A stretch of 63,990 bases of DNA, counting the filler, from an uncultured Methanosarcinales archaeon (GTDB lineage Archaea > Nanobdellota > Nanobdellia > Woesearchaeales > UBA12501): assembly GCA_964397315.1 (NCBI GenBank). It is 8 parts of 8 records of this genome, joined end to end, with 100 filler letters (N's around TTAATTAATTAA, not from the genome) between each part and the next. Parts side by side here need not be neighbours in the genome. Positions count along the whole stretch, not along the records: positions 1 to 10,107 come from CAYNHV010000038.1; 7 more parts are not named here. One strand, given 5' to 3'. The notes beneath the pieces were generated by a model, which was not told the origin of the DNA, did no database searches, and worked only from the letters and a program-made list of their open reading frames with translations. The first letter of the stretch is position 1. Each line of letters opens with the position of its first letter. A program made the position numbers and the translations under genes. Of this stretch, positions 1 to 41,801 are shown piece after piece.

Positions 1-97
1 CTAAGCAGAATACTGGTTTATATATAAATATTAGGAATTTCGCACCAACCTCGGAAGCACCATAACCTATTTAAATACGGCAGAATGCCCCTCAAGC

Positions 98-502
98 ATG
101 CCTGAGAAGAAAAAAGTCATCCTGGATACCAATTTCCTACTCATTCCGGCCCAATTCGGTTTTGATATATTCACAGAACTCCAAAGAATCTGTGATTTTA
201 ACTATGAGCTGTTTATATTTGACAAGAGCCTTGATGAGCTTGAGAGAAGCGCTGAGAAACAAAAAGGAGCTCAGAAACACCTTGTTAAGACAGCGATTTC
301 GCTTACAGAGACCATGAAAAACAATAACAAACTTAATATAATACCAGCAAAAACAGCATATATTGACAGGGAGATCCTTGAGGCAGCTGATAAGGACACT
401 GTAGTGGCCACTCAGGACAAGGAGCTAAGGAAGAAGCTCCGCCAGAGGGGCATAAGAACCATAATCATGAAGCAGGGGAAATACCTTGCTTTTGAGGGGT
501 GA
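98..502 (+). CDS. PIN-domain protein (Fcf1/Utp24-like)
   Basis: VILDTNFL PIN motif and VATQDKELRKKL; typical position upstream of rpoE. Confidence 0.85.
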   Translation: MPEKKKVILDTNFLLIPAQFGFDIFTELQRICDFNYELFIFDKSLDELERSAEKQKGAQKHLVKTAISLTETMKNNNKLNIIPAKTAYIDREILEAADKDTVVATQDKELRKKLRQRGIRTIIMKQGKYLAFEG

Positions 503-505
503 AGA

Positions 506-1099
506 ATGTTTTACAGGGTAGAAGTTAACGACCACATAAGGGTTCCTCCAAAGATATTCAATCTTGACACAAAGGAGGCAGTAATCCAGAGAATCAAGAA
601 GAAGTTTGAGGGTTACATCTCAAAGGACATAGGCGTTGTCATAGACGTTGCTGATGTCAAGGAGATAGATGAGGGCACTGTGATAACCGGGGACGGCGCG
701 GCATACTACAACACCACGTTTGAGCTCTATACCTTCAAGCCGGAGATGCAGGAGGTTCTGCTCGGCAACGTGAGGGACATCGCAGACTTTGGAGTGTTCA
801 TGAACCTCGGCCCCATAGAGGGCATGATACACATAAGCCAGGCAATGGATGATTACGTGAGCTTCAGCAAGGAAAAGGTTCTCACAGGAAAGGAATCAAA
901 AAGAATACTCAAGGTAGGGGACAAGTGCAAGGCAAGGATGATTGCAGTGAGCTTCAAGGATGTCATGAACCCCAAGCTGGGCCTGACCATGAGGCAGCCG
1001 TACCTCGGAAAGCTGGAATGGGTTTACGAGGACAATGAGCAGAAAGAGGAAGGCCAGAAGGAAAGCAAGAAAAGCAAGACCAAAGAGGCCAAAAAATGA
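506..1099 (+). CDS. rpoE1: DNA-directed RNA polymerase subunit E' (Rpo7)
   Basis: GDGAAYY motif; S1 domain FGVFMNLGPIEGMIHISQ; LTMRQPYLGK. Confidence 0.96.
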   Translation: MFYRVEVNDHIRVPPKIFNLDTKEAVIQRIKKKFEGYISKDIGVVIDVADVKEIDEGTVITGDGAAYYNTTFELYTFKPEMQEVLLGNVRDIADFGVFMNLGPIEGMIHISQAMDDYVSFSKEKVLTGKESKRILKVGDKCKARMIAVSFKDVMNPKLGLTMRQPYLGKLEWVYEDNEQKEEGQKESKKSKTKEAKK

Positions 1100-1281
1100 A
1101 AAAGAAAGTGTGCAAGAAATGCAGGATATTTTATGATGGGGAGCAGTGCCCGATATGCAAGGGCACGGCCACTGCCTCAGTGTGGAGGGGCAGGCTTTAC
1201 ATAGCTGACAAGGAGAATTCAACAATCGCAAAGAAAGTGGGGCTTACAAGGAACGGAGAATACGCAATAAAAGTGAGGTAA
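1096..1281 (+). CDS. spt4: Transcription elongation factor Spt4 (RpoE'')
   Basis: CxxC..CPxC zinc ribbon, W-G motif, GEYAIKVR C-terminus; overlaps rpoE1 stop. Confidence 0.95.
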   Translation: MKKKVCKKCRIFYDGEQCPICKGTATASVWRGRLYIADKENSTIAKKVGLTRNGEYAIKVR

Positions 1282-1287
1282 ACCTCA

Positions 1288-1746
1288 ATGCAGATGGAGA
1301 TAAAGAAGGAAAGAGAAACGCCCCTCCTCTCAAGAAAGAGGACAACATGCATGGTGGAGTATGAGGGGGCAACGCCGTCAAGGCTGGAATTCAGGAAAGC
1401 AGTGTCCTCAAAGCTGAAGGCCCCTGAGGAGCTCACCATCATAAAGCACATATACACCAGATTCGGCCAGAACAAGGCCAAGGTGATAGCGCACATATAC
1501 AAGAGCAAGGAAGATATGCAGATGATAGAGGAGGATTACCTGCTGAAGAAGCACCAGCGCAAGCAGGAGGCTGAAGAGGGAAAGGAGCAGCCCCAGGCAA
1601 AGGAGGAGAAGCCTGCTGAGGCAGGAAAGGAAGATTCTGAGCAAGGGCAGGACAAGGCTGAGGGCAAGCCGGCAGAGGATAACAAAGAGGAGGCTCCTGC
1701 CGGCGGGGCAGAAGATGAGAAGCCAGCTGAAGAGAGCAAAGAGTGA
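1288..1746 (+). CDS. rps24e: 30S ribosomal protein S24e with acidic C-terminal extension
   Basis: TPLLSRK, GATPSR, IYTRFG motifs; conserved operon context. Confidence 0.93.
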
Positions 1747-1751
1747 TTATC

Positions 1752-2009
1752 ATGGCAAAAAAGAAGAAGCCAAAATCCCATCCAAACCAGGTTTACAAGT
1801 CATATAAGGCAGAGGGGGATTCTGTTAGCAGGCTTAAGAAGTCATGCCCAAAGTGCGGCCAGGGAGTGTTCATGGCCCAGCACAAGGACAGGTCTACCTG
1901 CGGCAAGTGCAGGTACACAGAGTTCTCGGGAAAGGAAAAGCCAAAAGATGATAAGCCAAAGGAAACAAAGCCTGAGGCAGGAGACAAGAAAAAGCCTGCT
2001 GAATTATGA
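1752..2009 (+). CDS. rps27ae: 30S ribosomal protein S27ae
   Basis: [22 protein letters not shown] zinc finger; start placed at the ATG of MAKKKK. Confidence 0.95.
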
Positions 2010-2059
2010 GGAGATGCGAACCAATATCTTTTTATAATAGTTTTCTATTGTTATAGTAA

Positions 2060-2266
2060 ATGGAAAGTGTAAATATACCAAAACACAAGCTCAGCAGAGT
2101 GATAGAGGATGTTGAGAAGCTGGTCTCTGATGTTGAGAATCTTGCCGGAGACCAGGACAATGTTGCAAAACAGAGGCTTGATGATGTTAAAAGAGGAGGT
2201 GTTGAAGGAAAATCGGAAAAAGAACTTGACAGTTATCTAAAAAAAAGAGGAGTGAAAATTGACTGA
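2060..2266 (+). CDS. Putative antitoxin
   Basis: 68-aa protein overlapping the start of a RelE-like toxin gene. Confidence 0.6.
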   Translation: MESVNIPKHKLSRVIEDVEKLVSDVENLAGDQDNVAKQRLDDVKRGGVEGKSEKELDSYLKKRGVKID

Positions 2267-2554
2267 GTGGGAAATAAAAGAGCATCCTGACTTCTTTAAT
2301 GATTTGGACAAGCTGGGAGTAAAGGAGTTGCAGATTCTCTATGACAAGAAAAAGAAGATAAAAGAGAACCCCTTGAGGCAAAAGCATTTAAGGGGGGATC
2401 AAATTGTTACAGGGAGGCTGTAACAGATAACATCAGGCTTATCTATTATGTTGAAAAAAACACAATCTGGCTTCTGACAGTTGGCTTGCACAAAAGAGCG
2501 TTTAAGGATTATCTAAGGAGGCTGCATTCACTTAAAAACAAGTTTGGTTTTTAG
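2259..2554 (+). pseudogene. RelE/ParE-family toxin, frameshifted at G6 run 2392-2397
   Basis: TTG start gives MTEWEIKEHPDFFNDLDKL...KIKENPLRQKHLRG; adding one G continues GSNCYREAVTDNIRLIYYVEKNTIWLLTVGLHKRAF...FGF* (RelE pattern). Confidence 0.75.
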
Positions 2555-2559
2555 AACAC

Positions 2560-3441
2560 TCACTTAATATCCTGCATTGCAAGAAGGTCTTCTGTTGTGA
2601 GCTTCTCTCCCCTCCTGACCTTTTCCTCAACCCGCTTCTGGAGCTCTGAAAGCTTCATCTTCTGCCTGCTTTTCTTCTCCCTGTCCTTCTCCTGCTTTTT
2701 CTCCCCTGCCTTTGCCCTGAGCTCATTTAGCTCAACAAGCTTGTTCTGCAGCTTTTCATTGACCTCCTGGAACTTGTTCTTGGCCTCCTGGAACCTTGCC
2801 GCAGCTTCTTTCTCCTTCTGCCTGAGCTCGTCAATGTCCCTTGACGACTCAATAAGGCCCTCGTGCTCTTCCTGGCCTGTTCTTGCCTTGTTCTGTATCC
2901 TCCTGTGGATCTCGTCAGCCTTTTCCCTGAGCCTGTCAATCTCTTTTGAAAGCTGGTGGGACTTCTCAAACACAGAGCTGATCTTCTTTGATTCATCATA
3001 GCTTTTTCTTAACTCCTTGATCTTTTCCATGAGCTTCTGCTCCTGGCTGTAGGGGAGGCCTTCTGTCTCTATCCTGTATTCCAGCTTTTCTATCTCCTCC
3101 TTTATCTTTGAAGGGTCCTCCTTTATCCTGTGCTTGCTCATCATCTCCTTCTTCTTCTTGTTCCGCTCTTTTACCTCTTTTATCTTTTCCTTGATCTCCT
3201 CGTTAAGTTTCTTTCTTTTTTCCTTGGCTTCCTTAACCCAGCCTGTTATCTCATCCCTCTTCTTCTTAGAGCTCTTTATTCCCCTTATGCTGTCAACAAT
3301 CTCCTTAGAAATCTTTTCCTTGCTCTTGAACAAGGACTCTTTCTTTTCATTCAGAGCGTTAAGCTCTTTCCTTAGAGAATCCACTTCCTTTTTGCCGCTG
3401 TTCAGTCTCTCAAATAGCTCCTTGCTGTTCTTATCTTCCAT
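2560..3441 (-). CDS. Archaeal coiled-coil protein (COG1340-like)
   Basis: Long heptad K/E-rich protein ending GEKLTTEDLLAMQ. Confidence 0.75.
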   Translation of the reverse strand: MEDKNSKELFERLNSGKKEVDSLRKELNALNEKKESLFKSKEKISKEIVDSIRGIKSSKKKRDEITGWVKEAKEKRKKLNEEIKEKIKEVKERNKKKKEMMSKHRIKEDPSKIKEEIEKLEYRIETEGLPYSQEQKLMEKIKELRKSYDESKKISSVFEKSHQLSKEIDRLREKADEIHRRIQNKARTGQEEHEGLIESSRDIDELRQKEKEAAARFQEAKNKFQEVNEKLQNKLVELNELRAKAGEKKQEKDREKKSRQKMKLSELQKRVEEKVRRGEKLTTEDLLAMQDIK

Positions 3442-3490
3442 TTAAATCACTTTCCATTGTAATCAAAGGGGCGCTTGAAAGCGCCTTAAA

Positions 3491-3586
3491 CCACAAAGCC
3501 TTGAAAGCGGCGCTGTTTAAAGGACAAAAATCCGCCTGCAGGAGCAGGTTCAATTCCCCCTGCTTCAGCTAGCTCCGGCGGATTTT
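3491..3586 (+). repeat. Palindromic dispersed element, CCACAAAGCC...CAAAAATCCGCC...GGCGGATTTT family, copy 1
   Basis: AAAATCCGCC/GGCGGATTTT inverted repeat; block-wise homology to 5864-6001 on the minus strand. Confidence 0.6.
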
Positions 3587-3587
3587 A

Positions 3588-3905
3588 TCATCCAAAGAGT
3601 GAACCAAGACCTGCTGCTGCCTGCTCCTCTGATTTCTTGTCCTCTTCCTCTTTCTTCTCCTCTTCCTTCTTGCCCTCTTCTGCAGCCTGAGCTTCGCCTC
3701 CTGCTGCAGGAGCTGCTGGCGCAGGAGCTGCTGCTGCCTTCTCTATAGCCTCGTCTATGTTGACTCCTTCAAGCGCTGCCACCAATGCCTTGATCCTTGC
3801 ATCGTCCGGCTTGGCGCCTGCTGCTTCCATCACTTTCTTGACAGTAGCTTCGTCCACTTTTCCGCCGGCTTTGTGTATCAACATCGCGGCATAAACGTAT
3901 TCCAT
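3588..3905 (-). CDS. rpl12: 50S ribosomal stalk protein P1/L12
   Basis: [12 protein letters not shown]-terminus, Ala-rich hinge, [11 protein letters not shown]-terminus. Confidence 0.97.
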
Positions 3906-3974
3906 CTTGCTCTACCTCCACAACTTGTTTAAAGGACCAAAAATCATTTGATTCTTGATGCCTCCTGTAAGCAT

Positions 3975-5006
3975 TTATTCCTTTTCTCCCTCAGGCTTGT
4001 CTCCGGAGCCTTCAGGAGCCTCACCCTCTTTTGGTTTTTCTTCCTGGCCTGCCCCTTCGCTGCCTTCTGCCTCTGGCTTTTGCCCGGCTTCCTGCTGTTC
4101 TTCTCCTGTCTGCTCCTTGATTTCCTCTTTTGCAGGCTCTTCAGGAAGATTGAGCGCTGACTTGAGGCACTGCATCTCTGACTCTGCTGTCACGAGAAGC
4201 TCCTCAACCATGCTGTCAGCGAGTATTGTCGCTTCTCTTGCTAGGGCTCTTGACTCCATCTCAGCCTTGGTTATGAGGAACTCTGTGGTGTCAGTGTTCT
4301 TTATTCCCGCCTCAATGGCAAGGTTGAACGCCCATGAGTGGGCCTGCATTATCTTGCCCTTGTATTCCCCCTCATCAAAAGCGAGTATGTCCTTCTCATA
4401 TATTATGCCCTCCTCATAGATTGCTTTCACGTCAAGGCCTATCTCCATCGGCTCAATACCAAGCCTTGAAAGGATTGATGCCATATTCTCCCCTATGGCC
4501 TCCCCCTCTTTCACAACAACTGCATTCTCTTTTATGGCTACTTTCCCCCCTTCCACACTTGTTTTTATTCCCACTGCCCCCAGCTCGCCTATTATCGGCC
4601 CAGGAGCAAAAGGTGTTGGGCCTGCCTTGACAGCAACGTCCTTCGGAGCTGTCTGGCCCGGCTTTGCAGGGGCAGGAGACTTGCTCTTGTTTATTGTGTT
4701 GTATATCCTGAAGGGGTTTTCATTAGTGAACATCAGGGCAGGCATCCCTTTCATGTACTGAAGGAGGTTTTCAATGCCTTTCTTCTCCCCCTTTACCTGT
4801 TCTATGGCCAGCTTCATGAGCCTTTTCTTGGTCATGGTTATGTTAACCTTATCCCTGAGCTGGGCCCTCATCTTCTGAAGCTGGGGGGCTGGAAGGTTTT
4901 CCACGTCCAGGACTCCGACTATAGGATATTCCCTGAACAGTTTTACCAGGCTCTCAACAACCTTCTTCTTGTAAGGCGCGACATGCGCTTCTTTGTTGCC
5001 TGCCAT
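3975..5006 (-). CDS. rplP0: 50S ribosomal protein L10/P0
   Basis: LPAPQLQKMR, AGPTPFAPGP, LGIEPMEIGL motifs; L1-L10-L12 operon. Confidence 0.96.
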   Translation of the reverse strand: MAGNKEAHVAPYKKKVVESLVKLFREYPIVGVLDVENLPAPQLQKMRAQLRDKVNITMTKKRLMKLAIEQVKGEKKGIENLLQYMKGMPALMFTNENPFRIYNTINKSKSPAPAKPGQTAPKDVAVKAGPTPFAPGPIIGELGAVGIKTSVEGGKVAIKENAVVVKEGEAIGENMASILSRLGIEPMEIGLDVKAIYEEGIIYEKDILAFDEGEYKGKIMQAHSWAFNLAIEAGIKNTDTTEFLITKAEMESRALAREATILADSMVEELLVTAESEMQCLKSALNLPEEPAKEEIKEQTGEEQQEAGQKPEAEGSEGAGQEEKPKEGEAPEGSGDKPEGEKE

Positions 5007-5020
5007 TTTCACTTGATTTT

Positions 5021-5680
5021 TCACTTGATAATAACCGGTTTGCTCATCGTGAGCTTGAGGTATATGCTTTTTATGTTGTTCTTCTCAAGAGGAAGATGAT
5101 GTATGAGATTGTCATACACAGTCAGCACGTTATCAGCAATGTCTTTGTCATCCATCTCTTCGCTTCCCACAGGCACCTGTATCAGGGGCTTCTCTTTTGC
5201 ATAAAGCCTCACAGTGCTCTGCAGCTTATCGTAAACCGGCTTGAGGTTGGCTCCAGGAGGCACAACGCACCCTGACTTGGGGTCAGGCATCTTCTTCTTT
5301 GGCCCGAATACCTTGCCAAAAGAGCTTGCTACCTTCGGCATTATGTTCGCCTGGGCAATGAAGAAATTGAAATCCTTTGCCAGCTTTTTCAGCGCTTTCT
5401 TGTCATTTGCATAAGCGTCAAACTCGTCCTGGGTTATTGTCTTGTCGCATGCCTTCTCTGCCTCTTGCTTGAGCTCATGCCCCACAAGCGCGCATACCCT
5501 GGCCTTATTGCCCCTGCTCTTTGGGAGCTGGACATAAAGGTTGACCTGCTCTTCAGGCTTCTTCAGGTTAAGGTTACTTAGGTTTATTATAAGGTCAAAG
5601 CTCTGGGTGAAATTGCGCTTTTTAGAACTATCCTTAAGTCCTTTTATAACTTCCCTTATAGTGTTTTCGTCAACTGCCAT
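5021..5680 (-). CDS. rpl1: 50S ribosomal protein L1
   Basis: KRNFTQSFDLIINL, GPKKKMP, KLTMSKP; start at MAVDEN. Confidence 0.96.
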   Translation of the reverse strand: MAVDENTIREVIKGLKDSSKKRNFTQSFDLIINLSNLNLKKPEEQVNLYVQLPKSRGNKARVCALVGHELKQEAEKACDKTITQDEFDAYANDKKALKKLAKDFNFFIAQANIMPKVASSFGKVFGPKKKMPDPKSGCVVPPGANLKPVYDKLQSTVRLYAKEKPLIQVPVGSEEMDDKDIADNVLTVYDNLIHHLPLEKNNIKSIYLKLTMSKPVIIK

Positions 5681-5863
5681 TTTCCACCCTTCTATAGCCT
5701 TATAAAGGCGATAGTCCAAGGGTCTCACGCCTTGTTATTGGATTTTATGTAGGGAAAAGAGGGGGTTTATAAATATTATTGTTTGAGGGGGCCTGCTCAG
5801 GACAGGCAGCAGTCCTGTAATGGCTGCCGCCCTCTGAGGATTGTGTGGGATTTGCTTATGTAA

Positions 5864-6001
5864 CAAAAATCCGCAGCTCACGGTTAATAGGCTAAAGGCC
5901 ATGGCTTTAAGCAGCGTTTTTGACAGGCGGATTTTTGGAACTTTTAAAAGCCTTCATCTGCAACCTAAAGGTTTGCAGTTTTCGGCTTTGTGGAAATAAG
6001 A
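5864..6001 (-). repeat. Palindromic dispersed element, copy 2; supplies the last codons of the upstream CDS
   Basis: CAAAAATCCGC/GCGGATTTTTG inverted repeat; 29 bp (5973-6001) identical to 44899-44927. Confidence 0.65.
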
Positions 6002-6669
6002 GACTTTATCCTTGCCTTTCCCAGGGCCTTCTTCAGCCTTTTGTCAACCTCGTCGTAATTCTCAAACTCCCTCTCCCTTCTCCTGAACTCCCTGTCATGG
6101 AACCTGCTCCTGAAGCCTGCCTTGTGCCTGAACTTGTGGGCCTTGTGCAGCACCTCATGGTGCATTATGAAGTCCAGCAGCTCAGGGTCTTTATCCGTTA
6201 ATCCCCTGAAAAGGCCGCTTATCCTTATTGTGTCTGTCTTGTAATCATAGCTGCCCAAGCTTGTCCTGGAATTGATTCCCCACTCAAGATTGGGCTTTTC
6301 CACGATATGGTAGAAATATTTCTCATTAACCCTGTCAAAAGAGGCTGAGAGAAGAGGATCATCCCTGTATTTGGGTATTGCAAGGTGGAGGTTCCTGACA
6401 AAGCTGTTGTAAAGGTCAATATAGCTTGTGTTGAACTCTGTTCTGCCCTTCCTGCCCCAGAGCTTTAGCATCAGCTCCTGCAGCAGCCCCATCCTTATCT
6501 CCCTTGACACAGGCCTCCATTTTTTTGACAGGCTGAACTCCAGGCAGTTCCCCCTAAGCTTGACATTAGCTCCGTAATCCTTAAATCTGTTGTTATAGGT
6601 TATTCTGGCAGAATAATTGAATTCCTTTCCAGGATAAAGCAGGCTGAAGGTTTCCTCAACTAGTTTCAT
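5965..6669 (-). CDS. SprT/YgjP-like zinc metalloprotease domain protein
   Basis: FDRVNEKYF, LGSYD, HHEVLH (HExxH), FHDREF motifs. Confidence 0.75.
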   Translation of the reverse strand: MKLVEETFSLLYPGKEFNYSARITYNNRFKDYGANVKLRGNCLEFSLSKKWRPVSREIRMGLLQELMLKLWGRKGRTEFNTSYIDLYNSFVRNLHLAIPKYRDDPLLSASFDRVNEKYFYHIVEKPNLEWGINSRTSLGSYDYKTDTIRISGLFRGLTDKDPELLDFIMHHEVLHKAHKFRHKAGFRSRFHDREFRRREREFENYDEVDKRLKKALGKARIKSLISTKPKTANL

Positions 6670-7763
6670 TGCACCTCAAACCTCAGTATTGCAGCTATCT
6701 TCCCCAGGTCCTTGAGCTGAGAGCCCTCCCTTGTCTCAGTGGATATCATTCTTACGTCTGTGCTGAACTCCTGGGCCTTCTTGTCAAGCTCTTCAGCTGC
6801 GGCGTCATCAACCACTTCTGATATCAGAAGGGTCTCAACCGCGCCCATCTCAAGCTTCTTCCTTACATCCTCCATTCCATACGCGACCTTGTTCGGTTTT
6901 GTGGCAAGGAGAGTCATGAACTTCCCTATTATCTCCTTTTCTGCGGCAACATCCTCATCCGCAAGCACGTCCTGGCTCTTGTCCAGCAGCTCCTGCAGGC
7001 CGAACTCTCCTGTGTAGCTGAGGTCTTTTATCGCTATTATCTTCTTCTTGAGCTGGTCAGTTATGTAGCCGCCTTCCACGAACTCGTACTTTGTGGGGCC
7101 CGGCCCTCCAACTATGATGCCTTTCATGTCAGGCATCTCAAAGAACTGGGCTTTTACGTACTCGGCAACTTTCTTGAAATGGTCCTTTTTTGCACCCTCC
7201 CTGAGCCTTTCAAAACGGGCTGCTGACTGGCCTCCTGCGCGTGTCTTCCCTGGAACTTCAGAGTGTGTATTTACAAGGGGGACAATAGTCTTGCCTTTCA
7301 GAATAGCTATGTTTGCGTCCCTCCTGTCAACAACAACAAGCCCGTATATGTCCTTGTCCTCGCACATGTCCCTGAGAGGGTCAAGAAGGAATTCCTTGTC
7401 GCACCTGTATATCCTTATCTTAAGGGGCAATGGAGGCTCTATGGACCAGACATTCACATCGCTCTGACCCTCTCTCTCGCTTGTATTGCCTGAGAACACG
7501 GCAAGCCCATGCTCAGGAGTCTTCTTGTATATCTTGAGGTGCTGTATCATCTTCTCCAGGGCATCAATGACATTCTTCCTTGTTGAGGGGGACTTTATGT
7601 TGGTCGCAGTGCCCTGCTCCTCCTGGAGATGGTTTATTATCTTGTTCATGTCATATCCAGCGGATATGTAAACGCTTACAAGCTCTGTATGCCTGCCTCT
7701 GTATGACTCAAGCTCTTTCACGAATTTCCTCAGTTTGTACTTCTGGGCAGCTGTGATTCTCAT
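6666..7763 (-). CDS. prf1: Peptide chain release factor aRF1
   Basis: GRHTELVSVYI, NIKS, YRCDKEF and GGQS motifs. Confidence 0.97.
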   Translation of the reverse strand: MRITAAQKYKLRKFVKELESYRGRHTELVSVYISAGYDMNKIINHLQEEQGTATNIKSPSTRKNVIDALEKMIQHLKIYKKTPEHGLAVFSGNTSEREGQSDVNVWSIEPPLPLKIRIYRCDKEFLLDPLRDMCEDKDIYGLVVVDRRDANIAILKGKTIVPLVNTHSEVPGKTRAGGQSAARFERLREGAKKDHFKKVAEYVKAQFFEMPDMKGIIVGGPGPTKYEFVEGGYITDQLKKKIIAIKDLSYTGEFGLQELLDKSQDVLADEDVAAEKEIIGKFMTLLATKPNKVAYGMEDVRKKLEMGAVETLLISEVVDDAAAEELDKKAQEFSTDVRMISTETREGSQLKDLGKIAAILRFEVQ

Positions 7764-7923
7764 TTTATCCTCTGTTCCAAAGAACAAGAGATGGTTTATA
7801 AAAGTTGCTATAAGGGCATCAAACAGGATTTTTTGGCCTGATAACAGAAAGCTTTAAAAATGGCTTATTTTTCCTTGAATCCTAATCAGCACAGAACCTT
7901 TACCAATCCCTCTGAGCTTAACA

Positions 7924-8079
7924 GGGGCTGTGGGGTAGCTTGGTCAGCTCACATCCGGATTTGCCGGGCGGGCTGTGGCAATTATCCTTTCTGGCTTGGG
8001 ACCAGATGACCCCGGTTCAAATCCCCTGGGCCAAAAGCAGGCTCTGATGACTCAGGGAGTGAAAGTCCGGGCAGCCCCA
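7924..8079 (+). tRNA. tRNA-Pro(TGG) with two non-canonical introns (7944-7981 at 19/20; 8022-8065 at 59/60)
   Basis: Acceptor GGGGCTG/CAGCCCC, anticodon arm TCTGG-CTTGGGA-CCAGA, T stem CCCGG/CCGGG; removing the introns restores D-loop AGCTTGGTTA and T-loop TTCAAAT. Confidence 0.92.
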
Positions 8080-8175
8080 TTTGCTTTAAGGAGGGCTATG
8101 GATGAGAAGTGTGCTAAAGCCAGGAATTCAGGCCTGGCATAGCAAAAATGAAGTTGAGGCAGGGAAGTGTTCAGA

Positions 8176-8535
8176 ATGGCAATATCAAAATCAATATCAT
8201 CAATAAAAAGATTCGGCCCAAGGTATGGGAGGACTGTAAAGCACAAGTTCGGCTCATTGGAGGGTGTCCACAGGAGAAAGCACAAGTGCCCTTACTGCTC
8301 AAAGCAGAATGTCAAGAGAATAGCTGCAGGAATATGGCAGTGCAGCAAGTGCCGGGCCAAATTCGCAAGCAAGGCTTACACAGTGGCAAAGAGAAAGAGC
8401 ATGAAAGAGCTCACCTCAGACGTCGCAGGCTCAGAGCAAAGTGCAGAAGCTGCTGAAGAAACCTCCCCTGAGGAAACACCAGCAGAGGAAGCTGGTGAAG
8501 GGAGTCCTGAAGAGGAGAAAGAGGCTACTGCCTGA
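8176..8535 (+). CDS. rpl37ae: 50S ribosomal protein L37ae with acidic tail
   Basis: RFGPRYG, CPYC, GIWQCSKC motifs. Confidence 0.95.
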   Translation: MAISKSISSIKRFGPRYGRTVKHKFGSLEGVHRRKHKCPYCSKQNVKRIAAGIWQCSKCRAKFASKAYTVAKRKSMKELTSDVAGSEQSAEAAEETSPEETPAEEAGEGSPEEEKEATA

Positions 8536-8610
8536 GCAGGCCGGCGAATGCATTACATAATGATATATCGTAATATTTATATATAACATTGGGAGATAAT
8601 AAACTTCAAA

Positions 8611-8748
8611 ATGGCAGAATACAAGTGCTTCAAATGCGACAAGACCGTGAGCCCTGATTACCTTAGAAAAAAGGTAAGATGCCCCTACTGCGGGAGCAGA
8701 GTTCTATACAAGCCAAGAGGAGTAACCACAAAAGTAAAGGCAAGATAA
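8611..8748 (+). CDS. rpoP: RNA polymerase subunit P (Rpo12), 45 aa, missing from the ORF track
   Basis: MAEYKCFKCDKTVSPDYLRKKVRCPYCGSRVLYKPRGVTTKVKAR; canonical position after rpl37ae. Confidence 0.93.
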   Translation: MAEYKCFKCDKTVSPDYLRKKVRCPYCGSRVLYKPRGVTTKVKAR

Positions 8749-8763
8749 GCTGCAGAGGGCAAA

Positions 8764-9096
8764 ATGGCTGACCTCACCAAAGAACAGGAAGAGAAGATAT
8801 CACAGCTTCAGCAGATGGAGCAGAGCATCCAGAGCTTTATGATGCAGAAGCAGAACATCCAGTCCCAGCTTTCAGAGATAGAATCCGCCCTGAAAGAGCT
8901 GGAGAACACCAGCACAGCATACAAGATTGTGGGGAACATAATGGTCAGGTCAAAACAGGATGACCTGAAGAAAGACCTTGAGCAGAAAAGAGAGATAATG
9001 GGCCTCAAGATAAAGAATCTTGAAAAGCAGGAAGAGAGCGTAAAAAGCAAGGCTGAAAAGACGCAGTCTGAAGTTCTTAAGGGCATGAAAGAGTGA
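8764..9096 (+). CDS. pfdB: Prefoldin beta subunit
   Basis: ALKELE...AYKIVGNIMV coiled-coil and beta-hairpin pattern. Confidence 0.92.
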   Translation: MADLTKEQEEKISQLQQMEQSIQSFMMQKQNIQSQLSEIESALKELENTSTAYKIVGNIMVRSKQDDLKKDLEQKREIMGLKIKNLEKQEESVKSKAEKTQSEVLKGMKE

Positions 9097-9098
9097 AA

Positions 9099-9353
9099 AT
9101 GGCAGAGCTTAGCAAGGAAGTCCAGGAGGTTGTTGAGTGCATAGAGGAGATCCAGTCAGACACGACAATGCCCAAGAACGTGAAGGAAAGGCTTTCCTTT
9201 GTAATAGAGACACTCAACAGCAACGACGAGGACCAGACCATAAGGATAAGCAAGGCTCTTGACAAGATTGAGGAGATAGTGGATGACGCCAATCTTCAGC
9301 CCTACACAAGAACCCAGATATGGAACATTGCCACGCTTCTTGAGACGCTTTGA
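9099..9353 (+). CDS. UPF0147 family protein
   Basis: DTTMPKNVK and DANLQPYTRTQIWNI signature. Confidence 0.85.
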   Translation: MAELSKEVQEVVECIEEIQSDTTMPKNVKERLSFVIETLNSNDEDQTIRISKALDKIEEIVDDANLQPYTRTQIWNIATLLETL

Positions 9354-9412
9354 ACTTATAAGAATTCCTGCAGACCATTAAAAGCAGCTTGATAAATCCT
9401 GCTGCCAGGAAG

Positions 9413-10006
9413 CTATTTTTTCTTTTTCCTCCTGCCTTTCTTTCCGGACATGCTTTTCAGCTTCACTATTTCTGTCTTTGTAAGCACTGAATTAGGCATG
9501 TAAACAGTGTCCCCGTCCCTCGTCTCCAGCTTGGTCTCCAGAAGCGTCACTTCCCTAACCCTGCCCTCTATGCCCCTGACCCTTATCATCTCGCCTTCCT
9601 TTACAAACTTGTTCCTGTACAGGTAGAAGCCCGCGAACACGTTGGGTATGAAATCCTTTATCGCGAGTATGACAGAGATTATAACTATTATTATTATGGC
9701 TGCGGAGAGCATCTGCAGGACAGTGGTTGTCACATTCAGCTGGTTAAGGACCATGATTATGGTTATGAAGTATATGAAGTAGGTTATGAAAACAGAAACC
9801 CCCCTCTCGAGCTTTATGTCAATCCTAGCCCCTTTCTTCAGCACCCTGTCCAGCTCCAGGTCGTGCAGTATCTTGTAGACCACCCTTCCCGCAAGCCTTC
9901 CTATTATGAAGCCTATAAGGAGTATGATCACAGAAGCTATTATCTTGGCATACCATTCCCTGAACAGATTAACAGAATAGTTAAGGAGTGTGTCAAGCAG
10001 GGCCAT
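9413..10006 (-). CDS. Small-conductance mechanosensitive channel (MscS-like)
   Basis: 3 TM helices, KDFIPNVFAG, GIEGRVREVTLLET, MPNS. Confidence 0.85.
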   Translation of the reverse strand: MALLDTLLNYSVNLFREWYAKIIASVIILLIGFIIGRLAGRVVYKILHDLELDRVLKKGARIDIKLERGVSVFITYFIYFITIIMVLNQLNVTTTVLQMLSAAIIIIVIISVILAIKDFIPNVFAGFYLYRNKFVKEGEMIRVRGIEGRVREVTLLETKLETRDGDTVYMPNSVLTKTEIVKLKSMSGKKGRRKKKK

Positions 10007-10107
10007 ATGAAGTTAATTAGACAGGGGGCCTTTATAAACTTTTTTATTGGATGTATGTGCATAGCTAATAATTCTTAGATTTTTATCAATTATATCCTTT
10101 AGTACAA

Positions 10108-11262: not shown

Positions 11263-11367
11263 GAGTTCAGGAAGGTGGTTTATAAATTTTGTCAGGCATG
11301 GGGCAGAGCTTTCTGGGGATGCGGAAAACAAAAGATTTATATATAACACTTTACGTGATTGCAGGTC

Positions 11368-12198
11368 ATGAGCCAAAAAAGAGGCCAGGTGAGCGTATTC
11401 ATAATAATAGGGATAGTTGTTCTTGCGATTGTGGGAGTTATCATTTACATAAGCGGGATGGGGGCAGAGGATGTCAAGAAAGAAGCTGAGGAGGTCCCCT
11501 ATGACATCACGCCCCTAAAGAGCTTCGCGAACAGCTGCATCAAGGAGACCATGAACAAGGCATTCTACCTTCTGGGTTATGGGGGAGGAAACATCTACAT
11601 TCCTGAGAATAACCTGAGAGTAAGAACATACAACACATCATACGGATATTATCTTGGCGAGCCAAATGTGCCTTCTCTGTACGGGATCTCATCAGAGATT
11701 GAATATTACATGAGGAACAATATTGATAACTGCACAAACAATTTCAGCAGCTTTCCGGACTATAAGGTGACAGGAGATATAGAAAACGTGAGGCTGGACT
11801 TCACTGACGAGAAGGTCCTTTACAGCGTGGATTATCCCCTGACCATAAGAAAGGGCTCTTCCACATCAAAAGTGTCTGACTTCGGGGGAGAGCTGAACAT
11901 AAGAATGAGAAAGATTCACGGCATGATGGACAGCATGGTGAATACCTCAGTATCAATTGCGCCGTATCTTGTTGACATTGACGCGATAAGGGAAAGCGGC
12001 ATGAATGTTACAGCCATATCCTTTCCGGACAACAATATCCTGTATGTGATAAGGGACTCCATGTCAAGGCTTTATGACGAGGATTACACTTTCGTTTTCG
12101 CCAGCAAGGTGGGGCCTGAGTACAACATAAGCACAGATGGCGTCAGGCTGAGGATCAGAGAAGGGACAGCATACGCTGACTTCTCCCAGGGGCAGTAA
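11368..12198 (+). CDS. Pilin-like protein with class III signal peptide
   Basis: KRGQ-VSVFIIIGIVV N-terminus typical of DPANN prepilin-like proteins. Confidence 0.7.
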   Translation: MSQKRGQVSVFIIIGIVVLAIVGVIIYISGMGAEDVKKEAEEVPYDITPLKSFANSCIKETMNKAFYLLGYGGGNIYIPENNLRVRTYNTSYGYYLGEPNVPSLYGISSEIEYYMRNNIDNCTNNFSSFPDYKVTGDIENVRLDFTDEKVLYSVDYPLTIRKGSSTSKVSDFGGELNIRMRKIHGMMDSMVNTSVSIAPYLVDIDAIRESGMNVTAISFPDNNILYVIRDSMSRLYDEDYTFVFASKVGPEYNISTDGVRLRIREGTAYADFSQGQ

Positions 12199-16637: not shown

Positions 16638-18635
16638 ATGGTTAAGAAAGCATTACTGGCTGTGATTCTCTTAATAGTCATGATTCTGGCAGGCTCAACA
16701 GCGCTTGCTGTCAAGAATATAAACATAACAGATTCTGAAGTTGTTGTCACAGGCACAGGAGGGGAAAAGACAGGAGAGGTCAATGTGATGAACACAGGCA
16801 ATGAGTCTGTCAACGTGACACTGGACTCAACAATCCTGCTTGACGATGCAGGACATTCCCTTGAGCTCTCAGGCTTCAGCAGGATACAGAACCTCCAGCC
16901 CGGAAGTACAGCCCAGTCCACATTCACAGCAGACCTTGACAACAACGCAGGAAACTACACAGGAATAATAACCGCGGATGCAGAAGGCGTGTCTGACTCT
17001 GTCATGGTGAGAGTAGAGATAAAGGACAACAAGCTGGACATGAGCGTGCCCTCAAGCATAATAGACTCAACAAAGGCAGACGAGGAATTTAAGCAGGTCA
17101 TTGAGGTCAACAACAGGAGAAACAAGGATGTGAGGGGTGTCATAACAAAGTCAGGATATGACGGCCTTAGCTTCTCTGTTGATAAGGAAGGCCCTTATGT
17201 TTTCCCGGCCCTGTCAAAGACTAAAATAACCTCAACAGTGGGTGTTCCTGCAGGAGCAAAAGCAGGCGCATACACAGGAAAGGTAAAAATAGTGACAGAC
17301 TCCAAAAATTACACAACAACGCTCCAGACTCTGGTGGAGAACACTTACAAGGCGGATGTGGCCCCGCCCTCAATAAGCGTTGACCCAGGAAGCTCCTCAT
17401 CAGGAAACATTAAGATAACCAACAAGGGAAACGTGAACCTCACAGGGCTTTCCATAATCAACATCCCCCAGCTGATTGATGATGACGGGGATGAGATCAA
17501 CATAACAGTCAGCCCCAACAGCAGCATTGACGTCAATGTGGGTGAGACAAAGACAGTGAGCCTCAAGGCATCCGCCTCTCCAAAAATGGACTCAGGAGAC
17601 CATGACGGAACAATGAAGCTGTCAGGAACAGGCATCAGCAAGGAATTCAGCTTCACTGTCAACGTGAGGGACATACTCCAGATAAGCGACCTTGACATAA
17701 GCGATGACGATATCAAGGTGGGAGAGAAGTTTGACATTGATGTTGAGGTTGAGAACATAGCAGGGGAGATAGACCTTGAGGACGTGGAGATAAAGGTTTA
17801 TCTTGTGCATGATGGAAGCAGGCTTGAGGATGACGATGGTGATGATATTGAGGATGAGTCAGAAAGGTTTGACCTTGACGCAGAAGACTACCATACGGTT
17901 ACTTTTGACTTCAAGCTGCCGTACCATCTAAGTGATGGTGACAAGGTGAAGGTGCACATTGAGGCAACAGGAGAGAATGCAGAGGACAGCTCAGAGGAGT
18001 ACAAGGTTGTTGACGAGTCCCTTGAGATAACAGCAGAGAAGGAGGATCATGAGCTTGAGTTCTACAGGGTAAAGTTTGACGCTGACACCCTCAGCTGCTC
18101 AAGAAGCACCTACCTCAGGGTTGGCGTGAGAAACATAGGCGACAATGACGAGGATGACGTGGAGCTTGCAGTGGAGAACGCAGAGCTCGGAATAAGCAAG
18201 CACGAGATATTTGACCTCAGCAACGACCCTGATGATGACGAGTTTGAGGAGGAGAAATCATTCCTTCTCAATCTTGAGGATGCCCCGACAGGAACATACG
18301 AGATGAGGATAACAGTCTACTACGATGATGATGACGAGAAGGAAGTGACAACAGCAACCCTTGAGGTGAAGGACTGCGTCACAACCACGCCTGACACAGG
18401 AGACACAGGCACCAGCGGCACAGAAGAGGAGGAGCAGGTCAACTTCACCTATTCAGGAGGGAAAGAAACAACAGCGCCTTCAGTGACAGCAAAGGCAGTC
18501 TCGCCAAAGATAACATCAACAAGGGACTCAGGAGACTGGACAGACAGCGCGGCATTCCTGGGAATAGTCGGAGCTGCAAACGTGCTGCTGCTCATAATGA
18601 TCGTGCTCGCAGTTGTCTATCTTGTGAAGAAATAA
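16638..18635 (+). CDS. Putative S-layer/surface protein with tandem Ig-like (CARDB-like) domains
   Basis: Signal peptide, repeated NTGN/NKGN/NIGD Ig motifs, T-rich linker, C-terminal TM followed by KK. Confidence 0.8.
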   Translation: MVKKALLAVILLIVMILAGSTALAVKNINITDSEVVVTGTGGEKTGEVNVMNTGNESVNVTLDSTILLDDAGHSLELSGFSRIQNLQPGSTAQSTFTADLDNNAGNYTGIITADAEGVSDSVMVRVEIKDNKLDMSVPSSIIDSTKADEEFKQVIEVNNRRNKDVRGVITKSGYDGLSFSVDKEGPYVFPALSKTKITSTVGVPAGAKAGAYTGKVKIVTDSKNYTTTLQTLVENTYKADVAPPSISVDPGSSSSGNIKITNKGNVNLTGLSIINIPQLIDDDGDEINITVSPNSSIDVNVGETKTVSLKASASPKMDSGDHDGTMKLSGTGISKEFSFTVNVRDILQISDLDISDDDIKVGEKFDIDVEVENIAGEIDLEDVEIKVYLVHDGSRLEDDDGDDIEDESERFDLDAEDYHTVTFDFKLPYHLSDGDKVKVHIEATGENAEDSSEEYKVVDESLEITAEKEDHELEFYRVKFDADTLSCSRSTYLRVGVRNIGDNDEDDVELAVENAELGISKHEIFDLSNDPDDDEFEEEKSFLLNLEDAPTGTYEMRITVYYDDDDEKEVTTATLEVKDCVTTTPDTGDTGTSGTEEEEQVNFTYSGGKETTAPSVTAKAVSPKITSTRDSGDWTDSAAFLGIVGAANVLLLIMIVLAVVYLVKK

Positions 18636-26856: not shown

Positions 26857-27477
26857 TTAAGGCCTGGTCCATCTTATCTCATAATAGGTGACATCGTCCT
26901 CATCATCAACTATGCCTATCAGAAGCCTCTTTTTCGTTGAGTGCGCCACCCTGTTTTTTGCCGCGAACTCATACCAGGTGAGGGCCGAGCTCTCGTGCAC
27001 AGGATAAACTATCCATTTTGCATGATCCTCTCCGGGCTTTACTCCTCGGTCATAGACCCTGAAGTCAGCTCCGAACTTGAGGGCTGTCTTTATTATGTAT
27101 CCTCTGTTTCTTATGTCCCTGAACACGCAGTATCTTGTCCAGAAGTTGGGCTCAATCCTCTTGGCTTTCCTGATAAAGCCCTCCACTGTCATCTTCCTGT
27201 TGCTCTCGCTTCTGAGCTCAATCTTTCCCTTCTCAGCCAGGTATAGGGCTTCAATAAGGGAGAGCTGCAGCCTGCTGTCATCTTTTATCTTGCCGTATGC
27301 TCCCTGGTTGTAGAGCTCTCTGGCAGGGTCAGAGGACTCTGTAAGGACCCGTTCGTCCATCAGCTGGGCCTTTACCACTGCTTTCTTGTCTTTTTTAGCC
27401 TCTTCTCTGCCTTGCCTTGTCTGTTTCTCGCTTTCATCATTCCCTTCTTTTTTTGCTCTTGTCTTCTTCTTGGCCAT
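26857..27477 (-). CDS. endA: tRNA-splicing endonuclease, single catalytic unit
   Basis: LSLIEALYL, DIRNRGY, LKFGADFRVY (Tyr), EDHA (His), RVAHSTKK (Lys). Confidence 0.95.
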   Translation of the reverse strand: MAKKKTRAKKEGNDESEKQTRQGREEAKKDKKAVVKAQLMDERVLTESSDPARELYNQGAYGKIKDDSRLQLSLIEALYLAEKGKIELRSESNRKMTVEGFIRKAKRIEPNFWTRYCVFRDIRNRGYIIKTALKFGADFRVYDRGVKPGEDHAKWIVYPVHESSALTWYEFAAKNRVAHSTKKRLLIGIVDDEDDVTYYEIRWTRP

Positions 27478-27717
27478 ATTTGTGCTGTTTTTTAGGTTAT
27501 TTAAATAATTTTGCTGGAAGCAGCTGAGAAACAACCCCCCTTTAATATTTTGCTATATGGAAAATATTTTGGCCTATTTTGAGCTCATCCAACCAGGAAG
27601 GCGTTTGAGCATTTCCAGCCCCTGAAAAAGCTGAATAACAGCAGGCAGCAAGACCATCCCCTGGCACACCCATTTGGGCTGAAAACTTTTTATATTGGGG
27701 CGATTTCTTGGCCTTTG

Positions 27718-28620
27718 ATGCAAATCACATTTTTAGGGACCTCATGCATGGTTCCCACAAAGGAAAGGAACGTGAGCAGCGTGTTTCTAAGCTTCAAGAC
27801 AGAGGGCATACTGTTTGACTGCGGAGAAGGTACGCAGAGGCAGATGAACATTGCAGGGATAAAAAGGACAAGGGTGACAAAGATACTTGTGAGCCACTGG
27901 CACGGCGACCATGTGTCAGGCATAATAGGTCTGCTGCAGACCATGGGCAATGATGAGAATCCCCCCCGGGTTGAGATATTCGGCCCTAAGGGGACAATGG
28001 AGCACATGAAGAGCATAATGAACGCCTGTGTTTTTGAGTCCAGGGTTAACCTGAAAGTGCACGAGCTTGATCCTGAGGGTGTTGAGACCTGCTTTGAAGG
28101 GAGTGAGTTCCTGATTGAATGCGCCTACCTGAAGCACAACACCCCCTGCCTGGCATACTCCTTTGTTGAAAAAGACAGGAGAAGGGTTAAGATGAATTAC
28201 CTTAAGAGGAAGGGCGTCAGGGAAGGGCCCCACCTCAAGAAGCTGCAGGAAGGCAGGCCAATAACCTACAAGGGAGAGAAGATTGAAGTGGATGACGCCA
28301 CCGAACTGGTAAAGGGCAGGAAGGTGGCTTATGTCATGGACACCAGGCCCTGCAATAATGCAGTTGAAATCTCAAGGGATGCCGACATTTTGATCTGCGA
28401 GTGCGCTTACGCCCACGACCTTGAGGATAAGGCAAGAAAATACAAGCACCTGACAGCAAAAGAGGCAGCCATGATAGCTGGCAATGCAGGAGCAAAAAAA
28501 TTATGCCTCACCCACTTCTCTCAAAGGTACAAGGACACCCGCGCAATCTGTGATGATGCAAGCGAAACCTTCCCTGAAGTTGTATGCGCAAAGGATTTTA
28601 TGAAGATTAACCTTAAATAG
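27718..28620 (+). CDS. rnz: Ribonuclease Z
   Basis: FLGTS..PTKERN, DCGEGTQRQ, HWHGDH, GP exosite, THFSQRY. Confidence 0.95.
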   Translation: MQITFLGTSCMVPTKERNVSSVFLSFKTEGILFDCGEGTQRQMNIAGIKRTRVTKILVSHWHGDHVSGIIGLLQTMGNDENPPRVEIFGPKGTMEHMKSIMNACVFESRVNLKVHELDPEGVETCFEGSEFLIECAYLKHNTPCLAYSFVEKDRRRVKMNYLKRKGVREGPHLKKLQEGRPITYKGEKIEVDDATELVKGRKVAYVMDTRPCNNAVEISRDADILICECAYAHDLEDKARKYKHLTAKEAAMIAGNAGAKKLCLTHFSQRYKDTRAICDDASETFPEVVCAKDFMKINLK

Positions 28621-41566: not shown

Positions 41567-41801
41567 GCGGGGGTTCCAGAGTGGTCAACTCAGGCCAGCA
41601 TGGCTGGCCTAAGACCAAATGGGTAGGCCTCAAGGGAAAGGGCTCATTGCTTTTTTGAGCAAGCCTATGGCTTAGACACGAGCGTAGCGAGTGTATGCTA
41701 CAACAGCTGCGCTGGTGGAGTAGTGCCTTCGAGGGTTCGAATAGTTGATGACAAGGTCAGCAACGACCGAGCGCATCAGCGCGAAAGTCCCTTCCCCCGC
41801 A
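41567..41801 (+). tRNA. tRNA-Leu(CAA) with four introns (41589-41618, 41635-41661, 41676-41723, 41742-41787)
   Basis: Five exons join into an 84-nt class II cloverleaf GCGGGGG TT CCAG AGTGGTCAA ATGG G TAGGC CTCAAGA GCCTA TGGCTTAGTGCCTTC GAGGG TTCGAAT CCCTT CCCCCGC A; BHB-type motif at each junction. Confidence 0.92.

Follow-up and report, generated by a model that had tools for sequence, protein, structure and literature searches.

Among the described systems, ARMAN-2 (Ca. Micrarchaeum) resembles the gene analyzed here in being a DPANN archaeon with bulge-helix-bulge (BHB) introns at position 59/60, a multi-intron tRNA-Pro and many disrupted tRNA genes. In the part of the ARMAN-2 report used here (Fujishima et al. 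2011, PMC3239211), the intron of pre-tRNA-Cys(GCA) lies at 59/60 and those of pre-tRNA-Pro(GGG) at 53/54 and 59/60. The second intron of tRNA-Pro is therefore found at different places, 53/54 in ARMAN-2 and the D-loop in our genome, and the enzymes also differ according to the same part of the report, since ARMAN-2 combines a three-unit epsilon2 EndA bearing an ASL loop with 56% disrupted genes, whereas our genome combines a plain alpha EndA with 26/29 interrupted genes. A DPANN survey that included one Woesearchaeota genome (Kaneta et al. 2018, PMC5829648) tied, in the sections drawn on here, alpha4-type EndAs with an L3 (Nanoarchaeum-type) loop to many disrupted tRNA genes, and stated that standard tools fail to predict complete tRNA sets. 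The lineages treated in those sections share with ours a single alpha-type EndA and a marked rise in interrupted tRNA genes, but their EndAs have the L3 loop, whereas by alignment ours apparently lacks it and has the length of the M. jannaschii enzyme there.

More distant parallels exist as well. In the consulted parts of the same two papers (PMC3239211, PMC5829648), Thermoproteales and other Crenarchaeota have up to three BHB introns per tRNA, use D- and T-loop sites and show intron families across genes; they differ in having a heterotetrameric (alpha-beta)2 EndA and many relaxed motifs and in belonging to another phylum. These parts also describe a D-loop intron, of HBh' type, in the tRNA-Glu of M. 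kandleri; the D-loop is an intron site in our gene too. In a system of another superphylum, most tRNA genes are likewise interrupted, D-arm introns are missed by standard software, the inserts lie at BHB motifs and the introns are defined against compact relatives; in contrast to that system, one intron module recurs across genes and positions in Woesearchaeales. No per-gene census of Woesearchaeota tRNA introns was found in the literature searched, and the supplement of PMC5829648 may contain one. Multi-intron tRNAs and 59/60 introns are already published for DPANN, and the gene described below adds another case.

The DNA analyzed (the window, 63,990 nucleotides including filler) consists of 8 N-joined contigs of a 61-contig metagenome-assembled genome (here G000) of 1.47 Mb, 45.7% G+C and 93% completeness. 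Its first contig (C38, window positions 1-10107) carries on the plus strand a 156-nt gene at 7924-8079, which we take, with a probability of about 0.9 and from sequence comparisons, to be a functional tRNA-Pro(UGG) gene of a Woesearchaeota-type DPANN archaeon, the only one in the assembly, from whose transcript both introns would be spliced. The gene and its surroundings are composed as follows (window coordinates).

6666-7787, minus strand: release factor aRF1 (GGQ motif), identified by eye from the translation
7846-7860, plus strand: BRE/TATA-like motif (AGAAAGC + TTTAAAAA), about 64-78 nt before the mature 5' end, putative promoter
7924-7943, plus strand: exon 1, with the acceptor 5' strand, U8, G9, the D-stem 5' strand and the D-loop to G18 G19
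7944-7981, plus strand: intron 1, 38 nt, D-loop position 19/20 (1-nt slide possible), U.U in the BHB central helix
7982-8021, plus strand: exon 2, with the remaining D-arm, the anticodon arm, the variable loop, the T-stem 5' strand and T-loop positions 54-59
7997-7999, plus strand: anticodon TGG, in exon 2
8022-8065, plus strand: intron 2, 44 nt, T-loop position 59/60, hBHBh' type, central helix TTCA/TGAA
8066-8079, plus strand: exon 3, with U60, the T-stem 3' strand, the acceptor 3' strand and the discriminator A (8079)
8080-8087, plus strand: T-rich stretch TTTGCTTT, directly 3' of the discriminator, likely terminator
8167-8535, plus strand: ribosomal protein L37Ae (zinc ribbon, acidic tail), identified by eye from the translation
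8764-9096, plus strand: prefoldin-like coiled-coil protein, identified by eye from the translation

The gene occupies the 380-nt gap between the aRF1 and L37Ae genes. Its stems are complete (acceptor GGGGCTG/CAGCCCC, D GGGT/TCCT, anticodon TCTGG/CCAGA and T CCCGG/CCGGG), and the sequence agrees with the original prediction that the anticodon loop, CTTGGGA, is uninterrupted. The three exons are collinear within the 156 nt, and the gene is thus neither of the split nor of the permuted kind. The 3'-terminal CCA is not encoded. Archaeal transcription terminates at oligo-T stretches, which is the basis for regarding TTTGCTTT as the likely terminator.

The intact gene is invisible to standard searches. 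ARAGORN found no tRNA gene in the whole window, Rfam at its gathering threshold gave no match in it, and at E<=10 the region 7700-8300 yielded chance matches only. When both inserts were removed in the script, ARAGORN called a 74-nt tRNA-Pro(tgg). Removal of the D-loop insert alone returned nothing, and after removal of the T-loop insert alone ARAGORN -i forced a 38-nt intron into the anticodon loop and so reported a spurious tRNA-Pro(ggg). We also used a SPLITS-like pipeline, in which acceptor and T-arm anchors define candidates, all segments compatible with a 3-4-3 BHB are enumerated, each compatible combination of segments is excised and the products are ranked by the highest ARAGORN threshold that they survive. 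The pair 7944-7981 and 8022-8065 was the best excision at the locus (tRNA-Pro(tgg), 74 nt, threshold 116%), and the next-best solution was a 70-nt three-intron 'Val' at 112%. As a control, the pipeline was applied to the reversed genome, where none of 79 candidates led to an ARAGORN call; the real genome yielded 1389 candidates and 37 loci.

Since a T flanks each splice point on either side and allows a shift by 1 nt, and since the Pro(ggg) call with its 38-nt anticodon-loop intron appears once the T-loop insert alone is excised, it might be argued that the true borders lie elsewhere, or that the mature RNA retains one insert as an enlarged D- or T-loop. We consider this highly unlikely, because the 1-nt slide leaves the product identical, the Pro(ggg) reading has a mismatched anticodon stem and no orthologue in its support, and intronless orthologues fix both junctions. 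The original prediction had been less certain of the D-loop splice point than of the T-loop one; both D-loop borders slide by 1 nt to the same product, and the junction is fixed by an intronless gene of the same genus (L006, in genome G004). This gene is 74 nt long, scores 61.4 bits with RF00005 and differs from the predicted spliced product by 1 nt, located in the variable loop. Its D-loop is exactly AGCUUGGUUA, the mature D-loop that had been forecast. The script-spliced ARAGORN call and the orthologues are therefore in agreement with the claim of a tRNA-Pro(TGG) interrupted by two non-canonical introns with the borders given above.

The two introns differ in how closely they approach the canonical BHB. 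In the T-loop motif, an outer helix of 5 bp (CCCGG/CCGGG) flanks a central helix TTCA/TGAA with 4/4 pairs and the bulges AA|T and AG|T, and the intron has the strict hBHBh' form (3-nt bulge, 4-bp helix, 3-nt bulge) with one mismatch in the inner helix. This inner helix is imperfect (C-G, C.A as a mismatch near the bulge, C-G, C-G, U.G), and in the minimum free energy (MFE) fold the inner region forms a 4x2 internal loop followed by 7 bp. The motif had been called textbook: its helices and bulges are as described, and the adjective is slightly generous because of the inner-helix mismatch. In the D-loop motif, the central helix GCTT/TGGC has 3/4 pairs, with a U.U, between the bulges GG|T and AA|T; the inner helices CAGCTC/GGGCTG and TCCGG/CCGGG are present as predicted, and we add an outer helix GGGTA/TATCC that had not been reported. 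The geometry is 3-4-3, and the outer 5 bp and inner 6 bp are perfect; the motif is neither fully strict nor a classic HBh' or hBH, and the earlier description of it as relaxed is fair. The RNAfold MFE structure reproduces the T-loop BHB, with the 4x2 internal loop replacing the clean 5' bulge, and pairs the D region otherwise; a structure with both BHBs enforced has -64.2 versus -67.2 kcal/mol for the MFE, that is, 3.0 kcal/mol higher. The stability of the precursor relative to shuffled sequences (z = -1.22) showed no excess and is uninformative.

To place the gene among its relatives, 40 genomes of the same order were searched at the DNA level with the three exons, and the exon-anchored loci that were extracted were passed through the pipeline. 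In total, 25 tRNA-Pro(TGG) genes were recovered, the window gene included. The 59/60 intron is present in 17/25, with lengths of 19-123 nt, and absent with a seamless junction in 8/25; a D-loop intron of 18-51 nt is present in 6/25 and a 37/38 intron in 3/25, and six of the 25 genes have no intron. The other 16 orthologous 59/60 introns differ in sequence from that of the window gene, and the T-loop introns as a group have almost no sequence in common, yet the motif is kept. In agreement with this, T-loop position 57 and the first base of the intron strand of the central helix form A-U in 8 and G-C in 8 of these genes, with a mismatch in the remaining one (n=17).

The register of the motifs was controlled with 10 T-loop introns that had been found through exon matches only, with no BHB scoring. 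In register, the central helix paired in 39/40 cells and the outer helix in 40/40; sliding the 3' partner by 1-3 nt lowered these values to 10-22/40 and 0-30/40, respectively. The inner helix was weaker (28/40 versus 10-26/40 slid). For the six D-loop introns, the values in register were 22/24 (central), 23/24 (inner) and 23/24 (outer), and those of the slid helices were 5-18/24. Within the genus, the D-loop intron measures 38 nt in the window gene, 28 nt in L003, 18 nt in L005 and 0 nt in L006, and the three introns show clear homology (TCAGC...GCTG.RGCAA), the difference between them being an internal hairpin. Of the six D-loop introns, that of the window gene has the weakest central helix (G-C, C-G, U.G, U.U); the U.U is found also in L003, and the other four have 4/4 pairs, with U-A or U.G at that place. 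A GAAAGCTTTAAAAA-type motif precedes most of the 25 orthologues, with identical spacing in the same-genus genes L003, L005 and L006.

These comparisons bear on two further explanations. The U.U and U.G in the D-loop central helix, an EndA that lacks a specificity loop (see below) and a genome that, being 93% complete, could hold a second intact copy might suggest a decaying pseudogene, in which the D-loop insert is no longer spliced and a copy in the unassembled 7% supplies tRNA-Pro(UGG). We regard this as very improbable, given that the exons are 1 nt away from the intronless same-genus gene, the identical U.U is tolerated in L003, the promoter motif is conserved and the remaining helices of both motifs are intact. 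The assembly contains no further copy either; a 201-nt query matched elsewhere in it only partial stretches of 18-23 nt, and neither a second tRNA-Pro(TGG) nor further copies of its two introns were found. That the inserts are an artefact of metagenome assembly, such as a chimera or a collapsed strain variant, could be proposed because the genome is a 61-contig MAG. Nevertheless, two DNA runs, and no listed RNA run, contain all sampled words of 7700-8300 (these runs may be the source sample), and the orthologues of other genomes share the architecture and have homologous D-loop introns, which makes such an origin extremely unlikely. A functional gene with two spliced introns is thus the reading that we carry forward.

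An intron census of the whole bin, which had been proposed together with the original gene model, was run. On G000, RF00005 reported 16 tRNAs over its cut-off and 24 at E<=1, and only 3 of the 16 were 72-74 nt long; ARAGORN with introns allowed reported 21 tRNAs, 2 of them uninterrupted. Solutions were accepted if they survived an ARAGORN threshold of 116% or higher and had a mature product of normal length; on these terms the pipeline yielded 27 genes, of which 21 came from strict and 6 from relaxed BHB scoring. One of these genes has no intron, 10 have one, 14 have two and two have three. The introns lie at 37/38 (17 introns), 59/60 (13), the D-arm after mature nucleotides 20-23 (10), 30/31 (2) and 38/39 (2); tRNA-Gly(UCC) at C1:25867-26030, for example, has introns at 23/24 and 59/60. 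With two uninterrupted genes seen only by RF00005 or ARAGORN (C1:144649-144720 and C22:18246-18319), 26/29 resolved genes are interrupted and 16/29 have more than one intron. About nine loci had no solution meeting the acceptance thresholds and were dropped (C1:154621-154734, C1:149594-149687, C2:75007-75143, two on C6 and one each on C8, C16, C35 and C43). The pipeline requires a GTTCRA T-loop, U8 and a near-strict 3-4-3 motif, so that relaxed motifs are invisible to it and the census counts are lower bounds. It had been supposed that intron invasion of tRNAs is genome-wide in this lineage, and the census bears this out, since most other tRNA genes of the bin are not intronless.

The window was also said to hold a second tRNA gene, on a different contig, with several interruptions like the first. 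The tRNA-Pro is indeed multiply interrupted; the second gene, which is probably the one given here, shows one clear intron.

41567-41794, plus strand, contig C43: interrupted tRNA, probably class II, with acceptor GCGGGGG/CCCCCGC
41742-41787, plus strand: its 46-nt intron at 59/60 (TTCG/CGAA, bulges AA|T and AG|T)

Because this gene is 228 nt long, it must contain at least 90 nt of further inserts; for the interior of 41567-41794 no intron solution was obtained, even with relaxed pipeline settings.

Other features of the census genes were recorded. A TTTAWAWA box lies 32-36 nt 5' of the mature end in 10/27 genes, and the BRE+TATA motif lies 56-77 nt upstream in tRNA-Pro(TGG), tRNA-Gln(TTG) and tRNA-His(GTG), which would therefore have longer leaders. 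Long 37/38 introns carry C-box-like GTGATGA or GATGATGA together with TGATT/CTGA motifs, as in tRNA-Trp (C10:14904-15052), tRNA-Phe (C7:47120-47269), tRNA-Leu (C9:17002-17166) and tRNA-Met (C22:11177-11293). In other archaea, C/D-box guide RNAs are encoded in tRNA-Trp introns, and the GTGATGA-type motifs recall them. A C/D-box-like UGAUGA in the T-loop intron of tRNA-Pro was considered and dropped, because the T-loop introns of the orthologues share no evident sequence outside the structure-constrained ends; no D box or k-turn was seen by eye in its MFE fold.

The genes for the enzymes that would process such precursors are present in the genome, and two of them adjoin each other in the window.

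26857-27474 (start possibly up to 27534), minus strand: EndA, alpha type, the sole tRNA-splicing endonuclease gene of the genome (PF02778 + PF01974)
27715-28620, plus strand: metallo-beta-lactamase of RNase Z type, adjoining EndA (PF12706 and PF00753 over cut-off)

The RNase Z-like protein scores 25.9 bits with PF13691 (tRNase Z), just below the cut-off of 27, and probably acts in tRNA 3'-end processing. RtcB and an archaeal CCA-adding enzyme are encoded as well. EndA is the single match in the genome, with no beta paralogue, and 38/41 genomes of the order, closed or 100%-complete ones included, have one EndA match over the Pfam cut-off; no significant second paralogue was found in the 41 genomes, in which four extra matches had E = 0.03-0.4. 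With one gene and no paralogue, the enzyme presumably works as a homotetramer. Its 80 best homologues (60-83% identity) come from MAGs labelled Candidatus Woesearchaeota, Nanoarchaeota and Nanoarchaeia, some of them under an evidently generic 'uncultivated Methanosarcinales' label. The best solved relatives are the fused EndA of M. kandleri (5x89_A, E 4.7e-38, two matched stretches), the alpha subunit of N. equitans and the EndA of M. jannaschii, with which the catalytic Tyr, His and Lys align.

In phmmer alignments, our EndA shows a 9-residue gap at the crenarchaea-specific loop (CSL) of the A. pernix enzyme (3p1z_B) and a 6-residue gap at the Lys/Arg-rich loop of that of N. equitans (3iey_A), and no gap against the strict M. 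jannaschii enzyme (1a79_A). The Lys/Arg-rich loop precedes the catalytic His and corresponds to N. equitans residues 90-98 (PMC3488258). By alignment, then, this EndA appears to lack both of these loops, which have been tied to broad specificity. The C-terminal Trp is present in it; PMC3488258 reports this residue for no enzymes other than the crenarchaeal and nanoarchaeal (alpha-beta)2 EndAs and, at the equivalent position, the EndA of ARMAN-2. Read from the farther start (26857-27534, minus strand), the protein has a Lys-rich N-terminal extension of about 30-50 residues before the conserved core. The EndA open frames of several relatives are only 179-185 aa long, and therefore this tail is not conserved across the order.

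From these elements, a pathway for the maturation of the tRNA can be proposed. Transcription would probably start from the BRE/TATA motif at 7846-7860 and give a leader of a few tens of nucleotides. The precursor, in which the geometry of both motifs is apparent, would fold in the cell into two independent BHBs. In the T-loop BHB, the T-stem would serve as the outer helix and T54-A57 would form the 4-bp central helix with the 3' end of the intron; in the D-loop BHB, the extended D-stem would be the outer helix and G15-U17a would pair with the intron 3' end as the central helix. According to the known mechanism, the alpha-type EndA is expected to cut after the second nucleotide of each 3-nt bulge, at 7943/7944, 7981/7982, 8021/8022 and 8065/8066. 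RtcB would then join the three exons, RNase P and RNase Z would trim the ends and the CCA-adding enzyme would add CCA, and the tertiary contact between the D- and T-loops would become possible only once both introns are gone. Both BHBs borrow universal tRNA sequence (G15-U17a before G18 G19, and T54-R57), and the repeated use of these two non-canonical sites in many of the genome's tRNAs may be due to this.

When all census introns were compared with one another, the 97-nt D-loop intron of tRNA-Ile(tat) and the 105-nt T-loop intron of tRNA-Ala(tgc) were found to share a module (score 25, z 11.6). A weak likeness between the T-loop introns of tRNA-His(gtg) and tRNA-Pro(tgg) (score 12, z 6.4) lies mostly at the structure-constrained ends, and for this reason their homology is not claimed. 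The shared element is about 65-100 nt long and consists of a variable, covarying 6-bp stem with the loop GTTACGCT, followed by ACACGCAA and often by a second hairpin and ACGACC; it has no Rfam family at E<=1. It is present in 13/41 genomes of the order, with up to 11 copies (in relatives, loci L133, L140, L143-L156 and L161), and in about 10 copies in G000, where its sites outside the window are the following.

C1:153566-153632
C2:74174-74270
C4:8889-8953
C8:2602-2680 and 2779-2880
C9:17298-17473
C22:~11300-11390 and ~18330-18410
C26:5822-5890
C35:8496-8650

In relatives, the element opens many 59/60 introns (TTCRAA|ACAGCTGGTTACGC...) and D-loop introns, and it opens the tRNA-Pro(UGG) intron of one genome (G034) at the same site as the unrelated intron of the window gene. 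In 10/27 matches it lies outside a gene. At their left end, these stand-alone copies border on a direct repeat of 12-36 nt, which matches either the 5' end (in sense) or the 3' end (in antisense) of a neighbouring transcript. The 5' ends concerned are those of tRNA-Glu, tRNA-Ala (rRNA spacer), tRNA-Arg, one further tRNA and, in a closed genome, the start of one mRNA; the 3' ends include that of tRNA-Met and others. At C8:2450-2891, the 16S rRNA 3' end is followed by a spacer with a 21-nt copy of the tRNA-Ala 5' end and the element, and then by the real tRNA-Ala(TGC) with its 105-nt T-loop intron. The stand-alone copies were also considered as BHB introns spanning the direct repeats, and this was rejected, as no consistent 3-4-3 motif was found; the top scores came from self-complementary repeats, often with only 2/4 central pairs. 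It is conceivable, as a tentative proposal, that a mobile RNA or DNA module underlies the tRNA introns of Woesearchaeales, which would spread as its copies.

The gene corrects an annotation gap, since ARAGORN and Rfam miss it and RF00005 finds only 16 tRNAs of this genome over its cut-off. Within one genus, the same gene has 0, 1 or 2 introns, with D-loop homologues of 18, 28 and 38 nt, and this variation makes it well suited to dating the gain and loss of introns. The lineage illustrates sharply how introns can be non-canonical in position and near-canonical in structure, with three recurrent sites (D-loop, 37/38 and 59/60). In this genome, near-universal interruption is combined with an EndA that by alignment has neither the crenarchaeal nor the Nanoarchaeum loop, which is relevant to the published proposal that the disruption of tRNA genes is driven by loop insertions in EndA. 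More novel than the tRNA-Pro gene itself, the repeated element is the most promising lead on how such introns move. If its stand-alone copies mark places where introns arrived or were lost, they would point to a way in which BHB introns are gained, a question that was called open in a recent study of Asgard archaea, and if the module is mobile, it would have spread in a lineage whose loop-less alpha-type EndA serves almost every tRNA.
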